This document shows positions 15,970 through 51,445 of a DNA stretch of 64,000 nucleotides, piece by piece. A program made the translations under genes and the position numbers. Under the pieces are notes generated by a model that searched no databases, was not told the origin of the DNA, and was given only the letters and a program-made list of their open reading frames with translations. The first letter of the stretch is position 1. Each line of letters opens with the position of its first letter. The DNA is from Promethearchaeati archaeon SRVP18_Atabeyarchaeia-1 (GTDB lineage Archaea > Asgardarchaeota > Atabeyarchaeia > Atabeyarchaeales > Atabeyarchaeaceae): contig CP147779.1 in NCBI GenBank assembly GCA_037308085.1, positions 992,001-1,056,000 of the forward strand, given 5' to 3'.

Positions 15970-16183
15970 ATGATTCTTTACACCTCTGTATTCACTTATT
16001 CAAACTTAGAACTGAATAGGAACCGAAAACTGTACCTTCGTCCTCTTACTCCGTTATGCATCGAGATAGCGACTAAAACTTCTATATAAATCTTGTGTCA
16101 AGACGGCAAAATTATCAAACCCGGAGATCCTCGGAGAAGGAAGTGCAGCTGCCTTGAGCTGCGGAGAGTTACAGCGTCGCTTT

Positions 16184-16744
16184 CTACTTCGCGCTCTGGG
16201 AAGACAGCTCGGTGGCGATTGCCTCTAGGATGCAGCTCGCAGCCAACTCGAACACGGTTCTATTAGACGATATGTAACTTCCAGTGAGCTGTTTGCTCAG
16301 ATATGAATCTTCGTCGCCAGTCTCGGTGGACTTCGTCTTGATAACTAGGAGGGTATCTGCGGCTTCAGCCATCGGAGAGTCCTCCGAGGTTGTGATGGTG
16401 ACTATCCTTGCCCCAGCCTTCTCCTTAGCAATCTTGGCGGCCTCCAATACCAGAGGAGTCTTTCCCGAGCCCGTTATGGCAATAAAGAGATCTCCCTGCT
16501 CGACAGACGAGGTTATCGTCTCGCCTATCACAAAAACATTGTACGACAGTTCAGCCAGTCGCATCGCCAAAGCCCTGGCGACAAGCCCAGAGGGTCCCTC
16601 TCCCATTACGAATACCTTTCTGTTGTTCTTCTTCGCATCTCGGAGGAGGGTTACTATCTTATTGACCCGTTTTCCTTCAAGAGAGTTGATGGCATCCCTG
16701 ATTTCATTAAGTACGCCTTGCGCCAAGGTGAGAGATCCGTTCAA
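16184..16744 (-). CDS. 6-phospho-3-hexuloisomerase-like SIS domain protein (divergent)
   Basis: 'VFVMGEGPSGLVARALAMRL', 'IGET', 'AITGSGKT', 'VFE'; start set at TTG 16744 behind GTGGTG. Confidence 0.75.
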   Translation of the reverse strand: MNGSLTLAQGVLNEIRDAINSLEGKRVNKIVTLLRDAKKNNRKVFVMGEGPSGLVARALAMRLAELSYNVFVIGETITSSVEQGDLFIAITGSGKTPLVLEAAKIAKEKAGARIVTITTSEDSPMAEAADTLLVIKTKSTETGDEDSYLSKQLTGSYISSNRTVFELAASCILEAIATELSSQSAK

Positions 16745-43041: not shown

Positions 43042-44283
43042 TCAATTGTCTTCTTTGGCAGTACTAATCGCCCCAGCCATCTTCATGATCAGAAAGTCGG
43101 GGATGGCCCTGATCAATGATTCCCTATAAGTTCTGCGACCCGACAGTATATCGGCGACTTTTCTGCTTAGCCTGCTTCTGAGTCTAGTGTCTTTCGCGAA
43201 TGCGCCGCTCATGAACCCTCTTTTTAGTGCTATGTTCTGTAGCCACCTGCCCCACTTCATATCACTGCCGATAGCTCTTCGCCAAGCGCCCTCATATTTT
43301 CCCAGGAACCTTGCCGATATATCCCCCATTTCGACAGCCTCTGAGCAAATTCTCCCCGCAATTTCGCCTGCAACCATTGAATAATGCATTCCCTCTCCAG
43401 ATATCGATGAGCAATGCCCAGCTGCATCCCCGACCACCACCAACCCATCGCCGTAGGTTGGCGAAACTAATCCAGATAAGGGGCACAAAGCCGCCTCAAA
43501 CCTCAGTATCTTTCCTCCCGCTAGCTTTCCGCTGGCAACAGGATGCCTTGTCATGACATAATCTAGAAACTTCTTGAGGCTAGTATTCACCTTGGACAAC
43601 AGCGCCCCAACGCCGACGGTCACCGAATTGTCTTTTGGCACTATCCATGCATAACCAAATGGCGATACGTCTCCTCCGTAGTAGAACTCATTCATATCTC
43701 CGATTCTCTTCTCGATCATCTGGTTGTCCATCAGTATCTGATACTGTACGCACTGGCCGAGTTGACTCGGTCTGAAGGGCGGATGAACCACAGTCTTCTT
43801 CACGATAATGGAATTAACTCCATCAGCAGCTATCAGCATCCCCGCCTTGACCCTTTCTATTCCGCCATCTGAGGCTCGTAATTTCAGCTTGTATCCACTC
43901 ACACGGGCTCCTTCATCTGCCCTTGTCACGTCTACGACTCGAATGCCCGTGTCCACGCTTCCGCCTGCTTTCCTCACCCTCTCGACTAGATGCCGTGCAA
44001 GTGTCCCTCTGTCGAAGTTCCAGAAAATCGGGTGAGCGTAGCTCACCTCATCGACTTGGTGGTTAGGCAGGACAACTCTTATTCCCCTGATCTGGCGGCA
44101 GGCAAGTTCTGGGCGTACCTTGAACATTCTCAAGGCAGCATCGCGAAGCATTCCCGCACAGGGCTTCCACTCCCCGGGATTCTCATCCTGGTCAACTACG
44201 TGGACGCTGACACCCCTCTTCGCAAGGGTCTCTGCCGCGACCAAACCAGCCGGTCCTGCACCGACAATAGTGACTGAGGTCAA
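43042..44283 (-). CDS. Geranylgeranyl reductase family flavoprotein
   Basis: GAGPAG, 'KPCAG', 'ADG..S', 'GYAWIVPK', 'VGDAAG...ISGEG'. Confidence 0.88.
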   Translation of the reverse strand: MTSVTIVGAGPAGLVAAETLAKRGVSVHVVDQDENPGEWKPCAGMLRDAALRMFKVRPELACRQIRGIRVVLPNHQVDEVSYAHPIFWNFDRGTLARHLVERVRKAGGSVDTGIRVVDVTRADEGARVSGYKLKLRASDGGIERVKAGMLIAADGVNSIIVKKTVVHPPFRPSQLGQCVQYQILMDNQMIEKRIGDMNEFYYGGDVSPFGYAWIVPKDNSVTVGVGALLSKVNTSLKKFLDYVMTRHPVASGKLAGGKILRFEAALCPLSGLVSPTYGDGLVVVGDAAGHCSSISGEGMHYSMVAGEIAGRICSEAVEMGDISARFLGKYEGAWRRAIGSDMKWGRWLQNIALKRGFMSGAFAKDTRLRSRLSRKVADILSGRRTYRESLIRAIPDFLIMKMAGAISTAKEDN

Positions 44284-44443
44284 GGTTAAACTAGGTCTCC
44301 ACCCAAGCGTTTCCATAAATACTGGCGGTAACTTTTGCGTGGACTCTATATTTACGCCTTGCCCACGCTTCGCTACGACATCCTTTTATCATGGATTGCC
44401 CTAAATTCTAGAAAAAGGAAGTTCCAAAAAGGAGAGTACAAAA

Positions 44444-45216: not shown

Positions 45217-46047
45217 ATGAGGATCAGAAAAGGAATAGAAATAGTGGAGAATCATCCTGCCCTATTCGTAGAACCCATCGACACGGTTGTAGTTGCAGAT
45301 CTGCATCTTGGGATAGAACGGGAACTGGCAACCACCGGTATCTTCCTTCCTCGCTTTCAGTATCAAGACATCAAGGAGTCTCTCTCATTGATCATCAACA
45401 AGGTCGCCCCCAGGCAGATCATTGTAAACGGGGATCTTAAGCATAGGTTTGGCGGGAGAACCGACCAGGAGTTCAACGAAGTCATCGATTCACTTAGCTT
45501 CCTTACAGAGAACGTGGAGAATGTAATTGTAATCCGCGGGAATCACGACAACTTTGTCAAAGGGTTGTTTGCGCGGTTCCCGAAGACAAGGTTCGTCGAA
45601 AGCGTATACACCGAAGGAGATTTCACCTTCACGCACGGTCATGTCATCCCCCTTGAGATTGGAACGCAGGAATCCAAAGTTATCGTAATAGGTCACGAGC
45701 ATCCCGCAATCGGCCTTAGGGATGACGTCGGCGCGAAAGTGAAGCTGAGAGCGCTGCTTGTAGGTTCAGCTGGACCCAAGAAGGAACTAGTAGTGCTGCC
45801 AGCATATTCGCCGCTAGCTCTTGGGGCAGAAGTGAACATGGTCACATACGACGAGGAGATACTCTCCCCGTTTCTAAAGAGCTATGTGCCCCTGGAAAGC
45901 ATGAGGGCATACGGCATAGATTCACAGTCGGGGATATTCAGTTTCCCAGAGCTAAAGTATTGGCGAGGAACTGAACCGACAACGTATTTAGCTAATGAGC
46001 ACAATCGCGGTGTAGCAAAGAGAAAACGGCGCCACAGATATAGGTGA
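45217..46047 (+). CDS. Calcineurin-like metallophosphoesterase
   Basis: DLH, GD, GNHD, HGH, GHEHP motifs. Confidence 0.9.
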   Translation: MRIRKGIEIVENHPALFVEPIDTVVVADLHLGIERELATTGIFLPRFQYQDIKESLSLIINKVAPRQIIVNGDLKHRFGGRTDQEFNEVIDSLSFLTENVENVIVIRGNHDNFVKGLFARFPKTRFVESVYTEGDFTFTHGHVIPLEIGTQESKVIVIGHEHPAIGLRDDVGAKVKLRALLVGSAGPKKELVVLPAYSPLALGAEVNMVTYDEEILSPFLKSYVPLESMRAYGIDSQSGIFSFPELKYWRGTEPTTYLANEHNRGVAKRKRRHRYR

Positions 46048-46126: not shown

Positions 46127-47053
46127 TTGTGGGCGAAAGCATTCTGTCCAGGTCACATAACAGGCTTCTTCGAAATATGTGACCAGCCCACCGACCCCCT
46201 AAAGCGTGGGTCACGGGGTGCCGGCGTATCAATAAACAGAGGTGTAGCCACAGAAGTCATTATCGAAGAGTCGAGTCCCGCGAAGGTGGAGGTAACCATC
46301 AACGGAAAATCCGACCCGGCTCCAGTGACGAATAGCGTAGTCAACCTCATGTCGAGACTACGCCACGACCAGACTAGTCTCCACATTAAGATCAAACATG
46401 AGTCTCTTATCCCAGTAGGATGTGGAATGGGTTCGAGTGGAGCAGGAGCGTGGGGAACAGCCCTATCGCTCAATAATTTGCTCAAGCTGAGTCTGACCCA
46501 GGACCGGGTTGGGCAGATAGCACACAGGGCTGAAGTTGAGAATAGAACAGGGCTGGGAACGGTCATCGCCCAGCAGCGAGGAGGGATCGAAATAAGACCA
46601 ACCCCAGGAGCTCCAGGAGTCGGGCATGTCGACCAGATCCCTTTTCACCCGGACCTGCGGGTAGTCTGTAGCTCGATGGGCGCAATCTCAACGAAATCAA
46701 TGCTCACCGACCCCGCAATAAGAGCAAGCATAAACAAGTACGGTGGAAAACTAGTGAAGCAAATATGCAACAGTGCCTCCCCGGAAACGCTAATGAAGTT
46801 ATCAAGAGAATTCTCGCAACGAACGAGGCTACAATCAAGGAGAGTTGATGATGGTCTAGAGATGCTAGATGAAAAAGGTTTTCACGACTGTAGCATGGCG
46901 TTGTTTGGGGATACGATTTTCTCTATTGCGTGGGAGGATGAAGCAGAGAGTATTGTTAGAGTCCTCAAAGACTGGAACAAGGTGGGTGAGACGTTCTCTA
47001 CGGCAATAGACATGATTGGCGCAAGACTCATGGGATGTGAGAAAGATGGCTAA
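46127..47053 (+). CDS. Pantoate kinase (GHMP family)
   Basis: 'AF.PGHITGFF', 'GSRGAG', 'P.GCG.GSSGA', 'AH.AEV..RTGLGTV'. Confidence 0.92.
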   Translation: MWAKAFCPGHITGFFEICDQPTDPLKRGSRGAGVSINRGVATEVIIEESSPAKVEVTINGKSDPAPVTNSVVNLMSRLRHDQTSLHIKIKHESLIPVGCGMGSSGAGAWGTALSLNNLLKLSLTQDRVGQIAHRAEVENRTGLGTVIAQQRGGIEIRPTPGAPGVGHVDQIPFHPDLRVVCSSMGAISTKSMLTDPAIRASINKYGGKLVKQICNSASPETLMKLSREFSQRTRLQSRRVDDGLEMLDEKGFHDCSMALFGDTIFSIAWEDEAESIVRVLKDWNKVGETFSTAIDMIGARLMGCEKDG

Positions 47054-47831
47054 TATCCCGGAAACGCATCCAAGAGCCGCTTCTCTGAAGGTCCGAGAGC
47101 TGCTAATCGAGGGCTTCAAGGAAGGATACGTTGCGATGGCAGGGTTGATTGCCCATGGTCGCGGGGAAGCATTCGACTACCTCCTGGGAGAGGAAACGCC
47201 GCCGCCAGCCCTCATTGCCACGAAGGCAGCGGCTGCGGCTCTTTTGCTGGCAGAACGCCCCGTCATCAGCGTAAACGGAAACCTTGCCGCCTTGGCCCCC
47301 AAGGAAACAGTCGAGTTGGCGAAGCTTACTAATTCAAGGATAGAAGTCAACTTATTCTACAGGACAAAGGAACGGGAGAGGGGAATCGAAAGAGTCCTGA
47401 GAAATGCAGGCGCCACCGAAGTACTGGGCGTGGGTGACTCTGCAAGCGCGACAATACCTGAGCTTTTCAGCGAAAGAAGAAGGGTAGATCCCAGCGGCAT
47501 ACTGGTTGCCGACACAGTTCTAGTTTTGATGGAGGATGGGGATCGAACGGAAGCCCTTCGCAAAATGGGGAAGAAAGTGATTGCAATAGATCTGAATCCA
47601 CTCAGCCGGACATCGCGGGCTGCAAACATCACGATCGTAGACAACGCCGTGAGGGCAATGCCCAATTTAATGATCGAATCGAGAAAAGCAAAGAAGCAAG
47701 ACAGGTCAACCTTGTACGGACAAATCAAAGAATTTAATAATGAAAGGAACCTATTAGACTGCCTTAACCAGATCTGGAGAAGAATCTCAAGGTTGAAGAA
47801 AGAAGGGCTTGCCATGGACTATGACCTGTAG
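47046..47831 (+). CDS. Phosphopantothenate synthetase (4-phosphopantoate-beta-alanine ligase)
   Basis: 'IP..HPR..SL..RE', 'GLIAHGRGEAFDYL', 'EDGDRTEAL', 'IDLNPLSRT'. Confidence 0.94.
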   Translation: MANIPETHPRAASLKVRELLIEGFKEGYVAMAGLIAHGRGEAFDYLLGEETPPPALIATKAAAAALLLAERPVISVNGNLAALAPKETVELAKLTNSRIEVNLFYRTKERERGIERVLRNAGATEVLGVGDSASATIPELFSERRRVDPSGILVADTVLVLMEDGDRTEALRKMGKKVIAIDLNPLSRTSRAANITIVDNAVRAMPNLMIESRKAKKQDRSTLYGQIKEFNNERNLLDCLNQIWRRISRLKKEGLAMDYDL

Positions 47832-47928
47832 CCCTGATCGATTTTGCCGATAAAACTCCCAACTGCAATTCCGAGCATTTATGGAGGAGGCAATTGCTTC
47901 TGGGTTTCCAAGAGGTGTTAGAAAACCG

Positions 47929-49242
47929 TTGAAGAGATCCCCACAAGAACAGAAGAATGTACTTCAGGTTGCCCTAGACTTCGAGAACATGCATCGAGCT
48001 CTACAAGTCGCATCTGAGGCTGTAAAGGGAGGCGCCGATTGGCTCGAAGCGGGGACGCCTCTCATCAAGAGCGAAGGTCTAAACTGTGTTCGAGAACTGA
48101 GGAAGAGATTTCCCGACAAGTTGATTGTCGCCGACATGAAGACAATGGACACAGGTCGATTCGAAGTAGAAATAGCAGCTAAAGCGGGGGCCCAAGTAGT
48201 AATCATATTGGCTACCGCGGATGATAGTACCATCAAAGAAGCCGTAGAGGCTGGTCGGAACTACGGCGCGCAAATAATGGCTGACCTGATCAATGTAAGC
48301 GATATGGTTTCCAGGGCTGTGGAACTCGAGAAGATTGGCGTTGACTACATTTGCATTCACATCGGAATAGATCAGCAGATGAGAGGCATGAAAGCGGAGG
48401 ACATAATCAAGAAGGTTGCCGAAGTAGTCCGCACACCCATAGCCGCAGCAGGCGGAGTAAACTCGGAGAATGTACCAACTCTGGTGGAAGCTGGCGCCCA
48501 AATAGTAATCGTCGGAGGCGCAATCACGAAAGCCGAGAACGCGGAAGAGGCTACCAGGGCGCTGAAGAAAGCGCTAGTCACTAGGACGGCGATCGCGACC
48601 AAACTCTATAAGAAATATGGCGAAGAAGACATATTCAAAGTCTTTAGAATGTGCTCAACTCCGAACATTTCCGATGCCATGCACAGAAGGGGAGAAATGA
48701 AGGGAATACTCCCAGTGTCAGCTAACTGCAAAATGGTCGGAAGGGCCTTGACAGTTCGCACATACCCTGGCGATTGGGCAAAGCCGGTCGAAAGCATTGA
48801 CATAGGCGCAGAGGGAGATGTAATAGTGATTGAAGCAGGTGGGCAAGGCCCCGCCGTTTGGGGAGAGCTGGCAACGTGGAGCTGCAGAACTCAAGGCATC
48901 GAGGGTGTCGTGATAGATGGCGCCATAAGGGATGTCGAGGATATCCGCGAAATGGGATTTCCAGCATTCTCTCGTCTGGTAAGCCCCACTGCGGGTGAAC
49001 CGAAAGGCTTCGGGGAAATTAATGTCGAGATAACCTGTGGAGACATCAAGGTGAGACCCGGTGACTACATAATCGGCGACGATAACGGGGTCGTAGTCGT
49101 ACCCAAGGAGTCAGCCGTAGAGGTAGCGAACCGATCAATCGACGTGAGAGAGAAAGAGAACAGAGTGCGAGAAGAGATAAAAAGAGGGAGTACTCTATCC
49201 AAAGTCCAGAAGCTCAAGCAGTGGGAGAAAGTCATTGGCTAA
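47929..49242 (+). CDS. hxlA: 3-hexulose-6-phosphate synthase fused to RraA/HMG-aldolase-like domain
   Basis: HPS: 'LQVALD', 'EAGTPLIK.EG', 'DMKTMD', 'HIGID', 'VGGAIT'; RraA: 'STPNISDAM', 'WGE-x20-RD', 'PGD.I.GD..GVVVVP'. Confidence 0.9.
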   Translation: MKRSPQEQKNVLQVALDFENMHRALQVASEAVKGGADWLEAGTPLIKSEGLNCVRELRKRFPDKLIVADMKTMDTGRFEVEIAAKAGAQVVIILATADDSTIKEAVEAGRNYGAQIMADLINVSDMVSRAVELEKIGVDYICIHIGIDQQMRGMKAEDIIKKVAEVVRTPIAAAGGVNSENVPTLVEAGAQIVIVGGAITKAENAEEATRALKKALVTRTAIATKLYKKYGEEDIFKVFRMCSTPNISDAMHRRGEMKGILPVSANCKMVGRALTVRTYPGDWAKPVESIDIGAEGDVIVIEAGGQGPAVWGELATWSCRTQGIEGVVIDGAIRDVEDIREMGFPAFSRLVSPTAGEPKGFGEINVEITCGDIKVRPGDYIIGDDNGVVVVPKESAVEVANRSIDVREKENRVREEIKRGSTLSKVQKLKQWEKVIG

Positions 49243-49318
49243 GCTTCGATTAGGCTGTTTACCTTGTTTTCTTCATGGACCTGTGGTTATGCGATCCGGG
49301 TGACTTGGTGACGTATCC

Positions 49319-50248
49319 TTGCGATTGATAGTTCTTGGGGCCGGAGCCATTGGTAGCCTCTTAGGGGGTCTATTATCGGAAGTCGGACTGGACGTCACGC
49401 TAGTTGGGAGACAAGCTCACACGAAAGCCATTAGGTCGCGGGGGCTGCACATAAGTGGAGTTGTTGGAAGCAAGACTATCAGAATTGAGTCAGAAGCAAG
49501 CGCCTCTGCAATCAAGGGCAAAGCAGACATGATTCTATGCACCGTGAAAGCCTACGATACTGAGCAGGCGGCCACTGACGCAAAGACGCTGATGGGCAAG
49601 GATTCCATATTTCTATGTATGCAGAACGGGCTCGGTGTTGAGAATGAGGCGGCCAAAGTGCTCGGCGAAGCAAATGTAACAAGGGGAGTGACCAACACTG
49701 GTGCGCTTCTTGTTAAACCAGGTTACATTGAATGCACTGGAGTAGGCGACACAATCGTCGGCTGTCCAAATGAGGACTGGAAACCCAAGATCAGCGGATT
49801 AGTCGAAGCTTTAAACTCCGCAGGACTCCCAGCCATGCTCACAAGGAACATATCGAATGCTGTTTGGACAAAGGTACTCGTAAACGTCGGAATAAATGCA
49901 ATCGGAGCTATAACTCGTCTAAAGAATGGAGACCTCCTTTCGAATCCCTACTTGAAGGATCTCATGAGATCAGCTGTCACCGAAGCTCTAGCAGTATCGG
50001 AAAAGGCTGGATTGAACCTCAAGAAAGAAGACATTGTCGAGAAGACCTTCAAAATCGCTGAGGCAACGGCAGCTAACAAGAACTCGATGCTACAAGATGC
50101 TGAGAAAGGCAAGAGAACGGAGATCGACTTTATTAACGGAGCAGTCGCTAGAATCGGTAAAAGTATAGGTATCCCAACTCCGATCAATGACACGCTTACT
50201 GCCCTGGTCAAGGGCGCGGAATCACGTGCTCTTCGGAACGAAACATGA
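49319..50248 (+). CDS. panE: Ketopantoate (2-dehydropantoate) reductase
   Basis: GAGAIG, 'VKAY', 'QNG', 'W.K...N..IN', 'SMLQD...GKRTEID.ING'. Confidence 0.93.
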   Translation: MRLIVLGAGAIGSLLGGLLSEVGLDVTLVGRQAHTKAIRSRGLHISGVVGSKTIRIESEASASAIKGKADMILCTVKAYDTEQAATDAKTLMGKDSIFLCMQNGLGVENEAAKVLGEANVTRGVTNTGALLVKPGYIECTGVGDTIVGCPNEDWKPKISGLVEALNSAGLPAMLTRNISNAVWTKVLVNVGINAIGAITRLKNGDLLSNPYLKDLMRSAVTEALAVSEKAGLNLKKEDIVEKTFKIAEATAANKNSMLQDAEKGKRTEIDFINGAVARIGKSIGIPTPINDTLTALVKGAESRALRNET

Positions 50249-50278
50249 ACGACAGGAAGCTCACAGGAGAAATGATCA

Positions 50279-51445
50279 TTGGAAGAACAAGGGATTCCTG
50301 CTAACAAGATACTGCAAGAACTTGAGGAACGCACCAAGAACGACTATACCCATGACTCAGGCAGGATACTCGGATCGATGATATCGAAACCGCACAGATT
50401 CGCCTCCGAAGTGTACATAAAATACCTTGAAAAGAACTTAGGTGACCCAGGTCTATGCCCTGGAGTTGCGGAGATAGAGAAAGAGGCAATAGGGCTCATC
50501 GGGTCGCTACTTCACCATCCAAACGCATCAGGTAATATCGTGACGGGGGGCACCGAAGCCAACCTGATTGCGATGGCCGTTGCCCGGAACATGAGAGAAG
50601 ATACCAGAAGACCGACAATCATAATGCCGAGGTCGGCCCACGTATCCTTTGACAAAGCCGCAAGCCTACTGTGCCTTCACAAGATCAAGGTGGGTCTGAA
50701 TAGGTCCTTTCAAATGAATGTGGATGAACTCAAAAGATCCATCACCGGCGACACCGTGGCAATCGTCGCTGTCGCGGGAACGACGGTCTTAGGGGTTGTC
50801 GACCCCATCGAAGAAATATCTGAAATAGCCGAGGACAAGGGTATATTCATGCATGTAGACGCGGCATTCGGAGGCTTTGTCCTACCATTTCTAAGAGAGC
50901 TTGGATACGACACGCCAGACTTTGATTTCAGACTCAAAGGAGTCTCCTCAATGACGATAGACCCGCACAAAATGGGATTTTGCCCAATCCCAGCGGGAGG
51001 AATACTTTTCAGAAAGCGCAGCTACATCAAGTATAATGGCGTCAAAGTCCCCTACTTGGCGGGCGGAATCGCAACCCAAGGAACAATAGTAGGAACGCGA
51101 AGCGGAGCTTCAGCATGCGCTGTCTGGGCACTTCTGAAGCACCTAGGCCGCCAGGGATTCATGGATGCGGTCAAACACTGCATGGAGCTTACGAATTACC
51201 TTGTTGATAGAATCAAGAACTTGAAAGGTGTTCAGCTCACAACCCAACCCACCCTGAACATGATTGGGATCAAGTCAAACCAATATTCCATCAAGTCAAT
51301 CTGGAAGAGGCTCAGGGAAAGAAAGTGGGCGGTAGGTGGGCTCAAGGAGTCACTACGCATAGTGATCCTGCCACACATTGAACGCGAACACGTAGACGCC
51401 TTCCTAAACGATCTGCAAGCGATCCTGGAAGAGTTGAGGAGCTAA
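50279..51445 (+). CDS. mfnA: PLP-dependent aspartate/tyrosine decarboxylase (MfnA family; likely beta-alanine source)
   Basis: 'ILGSM...PH', 'NLGDPGL', GGTEAN, 'HVDAAFGG', DPHK. Confidence 0.92.
   Translation: MEEQGIPANKILQELEERTKNDYTHDSGRILGSMISKPHRFASEVYIKYLEKNLGDPGLCPGVAEIEKEAIGLIGSLLHHPNASGNIVTGGTEANLIAMAVARNMREDTRRPTIIMPRSAHVSFDKAASLLCLHKIKVGLNRSFQMNVDELKRSITGDTVAIVAVAGTTVLGVVDPIEEISEIAEDKGIFMHVDAAFGGFVLPFLRELGYDTPDFDFRLKGVSSMTIDPHKMGFCPIPAGGILFRKRSYIKYNGVKVPYLAGGIATQGTIVGTRSGASACAVWALLKHLGRQGFMDAVKHCMELTNYLVDRIKNLKGVQLTTQPTLNMIGIKSNQYSIKSIWKRLRERKWAVGGLKESLRIVILPHIEREHVDAFLNDLQAILEELRS

Follow-up and report, generated by a model that had tools for sequence, protein, structure and literature searches.

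The formation of ketopantoate is the first committed step toward pantothenate and coenzyme A (CoA). In the classical enzyme PanB (ketopantoate hydroxymethyltransferase, KPHMT, or 3-methyl-2-oxobutanoate hydroxymethyltransferase; EC 2.1.2.11, PF02548), metal-assisted enolization of a 2-oxo acid is followed by addition to a C1 unit at the formaldehyde level, with 5,10-methylene-tetrahydrofolate as the donor. To our knowledge, the lack of PanB in methanogens and many other archaea has been recognized ever since the archaeal pathway was first reconstructed by comparison, and we know of no enzyme that has been identified for this step in them. Three groups of described proteins are relevant to the candidate presented here. 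The bifunctional archaeal RuMP enzymes Fae-HPS (NF009833) and HPS-PHI (NF041755) join HPS (3-hexulose-6-phosphate synthase) to an enzyme for an adjacent intermediate, and in Fae-HPS the partner domain uses up the released formaldehyde. Members of NF005442/PRK07028, named [quoted passage not shown] include the Methanospirillum hungatei protein Mhun0647 ("HPS-MenG"), which showed an HPS activity of 0.21 umol/min/mg, against 6.05 umol/min/mg for Fae-HPS, and whose second domain was termed "unknown" (PMC5241800). Lastly, two metal-dependent 2-oxo-acid aldolases, YfaU and KPHMT, catalyze the addition of 2-oxo acids to free formaldehyde (PMC10127515). A role in pantoate synthesis for the HPS-RraA fusion family was not found in the searchable literature.

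The 64,000-nucleotide stretch of an Atabeyarchaeia genome analyzed here (the window) carries five tightly spaced genes on the + strand at positions 46127-51445, and profile matches bear out the identities given in the preliminary description. Pantoate kinase (PoK; 46127..47053), a protein of the GHMP-kinase fold with the N domain PF00288, matches the pantoate kinase models NF041122 (E 7e-50, with a score below the lineage-specific cut-off of that model) and NF040725 (E 4e-41). Its longest open reading frame overlaps by 38 nt that of phosphopantothenate synthetase (PPS, 4-phosphopantoate--beta-alanine ligase; 47016..47831; PF02006, 234 bits; NF010324, 349 bits, cut-off 227). After gaps of 49, 76, and 30 nt, respectively, follow a 453-residue HPS-RraA fusion (47881..49242), the ketopantoate (2-dehydropantoate) reductase PanE (49319..50248; TIGR00745, 270 bits, cut-off 141; PF02558 and PF08546), which we propose to be the consumer of the fusion's product, and an MfnA-type PLP decarboxylase (50279..51445; TIGR03812, 474 bits, cut-off 299). 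MfnA is the likely source of beta-alanine for PPS through aspartate decarboxylation, by analogy with what we take to be the role of the M. jannaschii enzyme. Apart from the PanB step, the pathway is complete.

The fusion is a full-length member of NF005442 (643.3 bits, cut-off 593; model positions 3-428 of 430, spanning both PF00215 and PF03737), it is the only RraA-domain gene of the genome, and an AlphaFold2 model built from 45 orthologues reached a pLDDT of 88.7. The N-terminal domain (about residues 25-235; 47953..48585, + strand) is an OMPDC-type TIM barrel that scores above the cut-off of the HPS model TIGR03128 (219.7 bits, cut-off 200) and carries the motif D85-x-K87-x-x-D90. It matches the HPS part of 9LJ9 (phmmer E 3e-65) and 3AJX (E 4e-41; Foldseek TM 0.91) and superposes on 3F4W (TM 0.93), and its residues D33, E56, K63, D85, K87, D90, H160, and D164 are invariant among the 45 orthologues. 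These similarities suggest that the domain frees formaldehyde from hexulose-6-phosphate, and the low HPS activity of the M. hungatei orthologue fits a low-flux role in cofactor synthesis.

The C-terminal domain (about residues 244-440; 48610..49200, + strand; PF03737, 161.8 bits) has the fold and the catalytic residues of RraA-like class II, metal-dependent 2-oxo-acid aldolases, and its closest solved relative is the HMG/CHA aldolase LigK/PcmE (3NOJ; E 4e-22, Foldseek TM 0.80). The acidic-x20-R-D-x2-D motif noticed earlier from the sequence is real: W327-G328-E329 is followed, after 20 residues, by I349-R350-D351-V352-E353-D354, and E329, R350, and D351 are invariant in the 45 archaeal and bacterial orthologues, which share 53-85% identity. 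R350/D351 correspond to R123/D124 of 3NOJ and E329 to D102, a conservative replacement of the acidic residue that positions the waters of the metal (3NOJ numbers were counted off the printed alignment). The fusion differs from LigK/PcmE in its low identity (~22-30%), in a score far under the LigK/PcmE 4-carboxy-4-hydroxy-2-oxoadipate aldolase cut-off (TIGR02798, 108 versus 304.5 bits), which makes it a relative and not an orthologue, in the attached HPS domain, and in its proposed substrates, with ketoisovalerate acting as the nucleophile and formaldehyde as the electrophile. The protein shows no match to the PanB family; only OMPdecase-type and RraA-like families match it. Characterized RraA-type aldolases enolize pyruvate or oxaloacetate, and C3 of ketoisovalerate is tertiary, a point that counts against a PanB-like function.

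The absence of PanB first noted for the window extends to the whole one-contig genome of 2,808,651 bp (96.9% complete), in which PF02548 had no match; the same search found PanB in 11 of 14 control genomes. Neither M. jannaschii nor M. acetivorans, both among the controls, gave a match, in agreement with the earlier statement on methanogens. PHI is encoded elsewhere in the genome (170 bits, cut-off 160), and two IlvD genes for ketoisovalerate supply are present. FolD was not found in this genome and a separate Fae-HPS is present (NF009833, 587 bits), which together point to C1 chemistry of the methanopterin type rather than the folate type. The Fae-HPS probably carries the bulk of the pentose flux, so that the fusion is best regarded as an additional HPS with a dedicated role rather than as the connection to pentose synthesis drawn in the preliminary description.

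When the fusion and PanB were profiled across about 450 other genomes, as had been suggested, the two proved nearly mutually exclusive in Asgard archaea and Thermoplasmatota. Among 301 Asgard genomes, 3 have both, 30 only the fusion, 241 only PanB, and 27 neither, so that PanB is missing in 30/33 genomes with the fusion versus 27/268 without it; for 121 Thermoplasmatota the numbers are 1, 91, 23, and 6, and PanB is missing in 91/92 versus 6/29 (in both samples the counts exceed the number of evolutionary events, since the genomes are related and not independent). Since 294 of the 301 Asgard genomes show an HPS-like match, the exclusion is specific to the RraA-fused form. In bacteria, one actinomycetotal order of 30 genomes has PanC in all 30, PanB in none, and the fusion in 27. 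Another five genomes that carry the fusion, drawn from four lineages, encode PanC or PPS but lack PanB. Four genomes hold the fusion together with an apparently intact PanB, in one case (G150) side by side in one operon, which indicates that strict replacement is not universal, and the 27 Asgard and 6 Thermoplasmatota genomes with neither enzyme imply that another route or auxotrophy also exists.

Gene order points in the same direction. Of the 32 other Asgard loci, 25 have PanE, PoK, PPS, or MfnA adjoining the fusion, and loci with the labels Bathyarchaeia, Hecatellales, Nezhaarchaeales, Nitrososphaerota, and Methanofastidiosia have such neighbors as well. The order PoK-PPS-fusion-PanE of the window recurs in G012, G219, G268, L004 (labelled Bathyarchaeia), and L039 (labelled Hecatellales), while in fusion-less Asgard archaea PanB sits in the equivalent CoA clusters (PoK-PPS-PanB-PanE in G029, PanE-PoK-PPS-PanB in G217). 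Within two Asgard genera, the same collinear slot holds the fusion or PanB depending on the species. In genus g47, G192 and G261 carry the fusion at position X of MfnA-DUF2100-DZR-Ras/ZnR-[X]-RagA-IlvE, where G126 and G240 carry PanB, as does G120, in which the DUF2100 and RagA genes are missing; in genus g10, X of Ras/ZnR-[X]-IlvE is occupied by the fusion in G291 but by PanB in G281, G258, G279, and G189. A class IV (branched-chain) aminotransferase, an enzyme that interconverts valine and ketoisovalerate, adjoins the fusion in 7 Asgard loci. The preliminary description had named a canonical panB elsewhere, combined with a lack of linkage to pan genes, as grounds for abandoning a replacement, and we found neither.

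Outside Asgard archaea, Methanofastidiosia, and the Thermoproteota-type lineages (Bathyarchaeia, Hecatellales, Nezhaarchaeales, and Nitrososphaerota), the fusion usually has no pan neighbors. In 28 Thermoplasmatota loci, the fusion has as its conserved partner a DUF362/4Fe-4S gene that is translationally coupled; in 16 mostly bacterial loci the partner is YjbQ, and Planctomycetota have YjbQ-fusion-FolD operons. These partners are not pan genes, which counts against a function in place of PanB.

Our results lead us to propose, with a probability of roughly three in four, that the HPS-RraA fusion is a nonhomologous functional replacement of PanB, as the preliminary description had surmised. The support is comparative and structural, with near-exclusion, the shared slot, and linkage to pan genes at its center, and every test that we ran favors it. 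In the proposed sequence of reactions, PHI would turn fructose-6-phosphate into D-arabino-3-hexulose-6-phosphate, and the HPS domain would split this into ribulose-5-phosphate and formaldehyde. 2-Ketoisovalerate, bound through its 2-oxo-acid group by R350, D351, and E329 of the Mg2+-dependent aldolase domain, would be enolized at C3, and its enolate would attack the formaldehyde to give ketopantoate, which PanE, PoK, and PPS would then convert to 4'-phosphopantothenate using beta-alanine from MfnA. Such a candidate ketopantoate synthase would share with PanB the product, the 2-oxo acid substrate, and the mode of catalysis, although the two have no kinship in sequence or fold (the fusion combines a TIM barrel with the swivelling beta/beta/alpha fold of RraA), and it would take its C1 unit as free or channelled formaldehyde. 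The hydroxymethyl carbon of pantoate would then come from a sugar phosphate and not from methylene-tetrahydrofolate. We think it likely that the hydroxymethyl group for CoA is donated by hexulose-6-phosphate, itself made from fructose-6-phosphate, independently of folate and methanopterin, possibly by channelling within a hexameric fusion. As in Fae-HPS, although with an aldolase in place of Fae or PHI, the partner domain would dispose of the formaldehyde that its HPS releases.

Alternatively, the fusion may be a formaldehyde enzyme of the RuMP type. Its aldolase domain would then act on pyruvate, the usual nucleophile in the RraA family, and capture the formaldehyde from HPS as 4-hydroxy-2-oxobutanoate, whether to detoxify it or to supply homoserine-type metabolism, while ketopantoate would come from another enzyme. 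That 3NOJ, its closest solved relative, is a pyruvate aldolase would fit, as would the homoserine dehydrogenase gene divergent from the fusion in six loci labelled Actinomycetota, the aldehyde:ferredoxin oxidoreductase gene upstream of it in six Thermoplasmatota loci, and the many loci that lack pan neighbors. We nevertheless consider this unlikely, because it explains neither the near-exclusion with PanB and the PanB-less bacterial order, nor the same-slot swap, nor the placement within PoK-PPS-x-PanE operons, and it would leave all such genomes without a source of ketopantoate.

It is less probable still that the fusion merely supplies C1 units, its formaldehyde reacting with tetrahydrofolate or methanopterin and its RraA domain acting as a scaffold or regulator, while another enzyme, perhaps a promiscuous one, forms the C-C bond of ketopantoate. 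A methylene-folate product would still need PanB, yet of the 125 Asgard and Thermoplasmatota genomes that carry the fusion, taken together, 121 have none; the genome of the window lacks FolD, and the invariance of the 2-oxo-acid- and metal-binding residues across archaea and bacteria argues for catalysis, even though the planctomycetotal operons, a nearby FolD in five Thermoplasmatota loci, and the PanB adjoining the fusion in G150 would suit a C1 supplier. As for the idea that the C-terminal domain is a genuine RraA that inhibits RNase E, only the family name ("ribonuclease regulator"; NF005442, PF03737) speaks for it, and we give it hardly any credence: the equivalog models for the RNase E regulator are missed by far (NF006875, 60 bits versus 136; TIGR02998, 35 versus 241), the domain lies nearest to the branch of aldolases with 3NOJ and 3K4I, and we know of no RNase E in archaea.

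If the fusion does replace PanB, it would fill the long-standing gap at this step in methanogens, most sampled Thermoplasmatota, part of the Asgard archaea, Thermoproteota-type lineages (for example, Bathyarchaeia and Nezhaarchaeales), and several anaerobic bacterial phyla, and the archaeal pathway to CoA would be complete. It would also introduce hexulose phosphate as a new C1 source in place of a pterin-bound methylene group, and give engineered pantothenate production an enzyme that does not depend on folate. A widespread family misleadingly named after ribonuclease regulation, with its "unknown" MenG-like domain, would gain a real function, and metabolic reconstructions would no longer count these organisms, Asgard archaea among them, as pantothenate auxotrophs.

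Five genes on the + strand of the window encode pantoate kinase (PoK; 46127-47053, found by ORF listing and profile searches), phosphopantothenate synthetase (PPS; 47016-47831; PF02006, 234 bits), the 453-aa HPS-RraA fusion (47881-49242), ketopantoate reductase (PanE; 49319-50248; TIGR00745, 270 bits) and MfnA (50279-51445; TIGR03812, 474 bits), all co-oriented as the preliminary description had claimed. Over its whole length, the fusion fits NF005442, [quoted passage not shown] (643 bits against a cut-off of 593). Ketopantoate hydroxymethyltransferase (PanB), reported there as missing from the window, is missing from the whole genome: PF02548 had no match in the single contig of 2,808,651 bp (96.9% complete), and the same search was positive in 11 of 14 control genomes. 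ORF, profile and whole-genome searches thus confirm a CoA operon that carries the fusion and lacks PanB. We infer, with a probability of roughly 75%, that the fusion replaces PanB, making ketopantoate from ketoisovalerate and formaldehyde released by its HPS domain, and this is the best-supported explanation. The operon is flanked upstream by a co-oriented metallophosphoesterase gene and downstream by a convergent MBL-fold hydrolase gene. The former, which is SbcD-related (45217-46047, +; TIGR00024, 147 bits), precedes the PoK gene by 80 nt, shares its strand and might belong to the same transcript; farther upstream is a gene of the geranylgeranyl reductase family (43042-44316, -).

The distribution of the two enzymes is consistent with replacement. 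Among 301 Asgard genomes at least 80% complete, 30 had only the fusion, 241 only PanB, 3 both and 27 neither, and the corresponding numbers for 121 Thermoplasmatota genomes were 91, 23, 1 and 6, although related genomes are not independent and such counts overstate the number of events. An HPS-like match of some kind was present in 294 of the 301 Asgard genomes, so the exclusion is specific to the RraA-fused form and does not concern RuMP enzymes generally. In the order containing genome G304, all 30 genomes had PanC, none had PanB and 27 had the fusion; in the tree, the fusion of this order is almost the same as the one from Ca. Solincola (Geothermincolaceae). Another five genomes with the fusion (two Thermoplasmata, one Nezhaarchaeales, one Actinomycetota and one Planctomycetaceae) all lacked PanB and all had PPS or PanC. 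Among the named controls, M. acetivorans had the fusion above the cut-off and no PanB, and M. jannaschii a standalone RraA-like gene and likewise no PanB. Even allowing for relatedness, the exclusion is seen in at least eight Asgard families, again in another archaeal phylum, and in a bacterial order.

Within genera, fusion and PanB alternate in the same chromosomal slot, and we give this swap the greatest weight, since lifestyle and cofactor usage are thereby controlled for. In Asgard genus g47, a shared locus reads MfnA-DUF2100-DZR-Ras/Zn-ribbon GTPase-slot-RagA-like GTPase-IlvE, and the flanking proteins share 55 to 84% identity with their counterparts in G192, which carries the fusion; the slot holds the fusion in G192 and G261 and PanB in G126 and G240, as well as in G120, which is without the DUF2100 and RagA genes. 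Genus g10 shows the swap between the Ras/Zn-ribbon gene and IlvE: G291 has the fusion there, and G281, G258, G279 and G189 have PanB. Genus g54 looks like an intermediate state: G150 carries PoK-fusion-PanB-PanE (L113:2652-9285) with PPS and MfnA adjacent and an intact PanB (365 bits), G272 has PoK-fusion-PanE with PanB elsewhere, and G252 has PoK-fusion-PanE and no PanB. The arrangement in G150 appears to capture a displacement under way, or else a conditional redundancy, its congeners having lost PanB from this operon position. PanB also stands in the CoA clusters of fusion-less Asgard families, as PoK-PPS-PanB-PanE in G029 and PanE-PoK-PPS-PanB in G217, and it adjoins PoK, PPS or MfnA in G004, G026 and G290, indicating that the fusion of the window occupies the place of PanB. 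In Asgard family f9, small GTPase genes of eukaryote-like type stand on either side of the alternating slot (L116:3945-5732 and L116:7539-8480, both -; also loci L109, L111 and L133-L138), one for a 596-aa Ras/Roc-family protein with a terminal zinc ribbon and the other for a RagA/Gtr1-like GTPase.

Linkage of the fusion to pan genes is likewise conserved, as the preliminary description would lead one to expect. PanE, PoK, PPS or MfnA lies within about 5 kb of the fusion in 25 of 32 other Asgard-sample loci; PanE belongs to the 4-kb neighbour cluster in 14 of the 32, almost always directly downstream of the fusion. A class IV aminotransferase of the branched-chain type, which interconverts valine and ketoisovalerate, adjoins the fusion in seven Asgard loci. 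Outside Asgard, the full PoK-PPS-fusion-PanE operon is found in a Bathyarchaeia-labelled locus (L004) and a Hecatellales-labelled one (L039), PoK-PPS-fusion in Methanofastidiosia (L057), and fusion-PanE in Nezhaarchaeales and Nitrososphaerota (L002, L003 and L005). This linkage is not universal, and beyond the Asgard, Thermoproteota-type and Methanofastidiosia lineages the neighbours are usually non-pan genes. In 28 Thermoplasmatota loci, a downstream gene for a DUF362 protein into which a 4Fe-4S dicluster is inserted (PF04015 and PF00037; for example L065:1637-2638, +; L033:7269-8270; L054:7281-8276) overlaps the fusion 3' end by about 18 nt and is a conserved, translationally coupled partner; it might, speculatively, encode an alternative ferredoxin-linked ketopantoate reductase. 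G301, whose fusion locus (L014) is outside these 28, had no PanE match. A YjbQ/UPF0047 gene lies upstream of the fusion in 16 mostly bacterial loci, its end being the exact fusion start in Firestonebacteria, Planctomycetota, Omnitrophota and Clostridia, and the distance is about 4 kb or less in Desantisbacteria (L079) and three Actinomycetota loci. FolD continues this operon in Pirellulales and Phycisphaerae (Planctomycetota loci L044:4332-7406, L048:5561-8728 and L059:1679-4354) and is unusually long, about 450 aa, in L044 and L048; a 2-oxoacid:ferredoxin oxidoreductase is encoded upstream of the fusion in Firestonebacteria.

For the structure of the fusion, which is probably a hexamer, we used a confident AlphaFold2 model based on an alignment of 45 orthologues (pLDDT 88.7, pTM 0.78) in place of a single-sequence model, which was dropped at pLDDT 36.8. 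The N-terminal half of the model overlays known structures of HPS (3AJX, TM 0.91; 3F4W, TM 0.93), and its C-terminal half the HMG/CHA aldolase 3NOJ (TM 0.80) and the uncharacterised 3K4I. In sequence, too, the HPS domain resembles an archaeal HPS-PHI structure in its HPS portion (E 3e-65), and it retains D85-x-K87-x-x-D90 and other invariant barrel residues in the 45 sequences, which come from Asgard archaea, Thermoplasmatota, Thermoproteota-type lineages and at least six bacterial phyla and are 53 to 85% identical to the window protein. Aligned with 3NOJ, catalytic Arg123 corresponds to R350, metal-binding Asp124 to D351 and Asp102 to E329; all three residues are invariant in 45 of 45 fusions, suggesting a single function throughout. 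The equivalog models for RraA, the regulator of RNase E, and for LigK gave scores far below their cut-offs, and on these scores we reject an RNase-regulator reading. YfaU and KPHMT (PanB itself), both metal-dependent 2-oxo-acid aldolases, add 2-oxo acids to free formaldehyde (PMC10127515), so that the proposed step would be ordinary class II aldolase chemistry, with ketoisovalerate as the candidate substrate. In the searchable literature, with subscription journals outside its coverage, we found no paper tying the fusion to pantoate.

The PanB-replacement reading has its weaknesses, namely the non-pan neighbours and the genomes with both enzymes (4) or neither (33) in the Asgard and Thermoplasmatota samples. 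No RraA domain was found in the neither-enzyme genomes Odin-like G001, G010, G435 and G436; in G426, also with neither, two partial RraA matches lie side by side, apparently through a frameshift. The fusion could instead trap formaldehyde on pyruvate, which we consider unlikely, or serve purely in C1 supply with a non-catalytic RraA domain, which appears more doubtful still; both leave the PanB exclusion and the same-slot swap unexplained. That the pattern merely reflects folate-free lifestyles is weakened by FolD beside the fusion in Planctomycetota and Thermoplasmatota loci and by the swaps within genera. Standalone RraA-like genes give a split form no support, having no pan neighbours in the Asgard genomes G020 and G031 (neither PanB nor fusion) or in the PanB-bearing genome G146. 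Long frames (587 to 908 aa) considered as Rosetta-stone fusions to a pan enzyme proved to be stop-free upstream stretches in high-GC genomes, and no further pan domain was recognisable in them.

When 45 fusions were placed in a maximum-likelihood tree, the bacterial members (Firestonebacteria, Desantisbacteria, Omnitrophota, Planctomycetota, Clostridia, Actinomycetota and a deltaproteobacterium) all fell into one clade (support 100/99), which suggests that the gene crossed between the domains once, in either direction as the tree is midpoint-rooted only, and then dispersed among anaerobic bacterial phyla. Three well-supported Asgard groups (f8 with f18; f26, f28 and f29; f9 with f21) unite with weak support (81/76) in a clade that largely tracks host families, and family f1, to which the window belongs, branches separately at an unresolved position. 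The closest public relative of the fusion is from an Asgard ("Promethearchaeati") MAG (85% identity), and the public runs listed as containing this DNA are freshwater-sediment and wetland metagenomes, with no RNA run among those listed.

The proposed inputs of the fusion are available in its own genome, which encodes PHI above cut-off (G000:C1:671634-672206, outside the window) and two IlvD proteins for ketoisovalerate. A second PHI-like SIS-domain match (16172-16720, -; TIGR03127, 131 bits) falls below the cut-off of 160 and contains one TAG within the matched stretch. The RraA domain of the fusion is the sole one in the genome. A methanogen-type Fae-HPS is encoded outside the window (G000:C1:439282-440466, L117:3283-4467; NF009833, 587 bits), just downstream of the gene for a type I GAPDH, making the operon HPS a second, extra one; together with our failure to find FolD in this genome, it suggests methanopterin-type formaldehyde handling. 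Kono et al. (PMC5241800) measured an HPS activity of 0.21 umol/min/mg for the M. hungatei "HPS-MenG" fusion, about 30-fold below Fae-HPS. Such weak activity suits a low-flux cofactor pathway. The bulk of the pentose is probably supplied by Fae-HPS, which would capture the formaldehyde on a methanopterin-type carrier.
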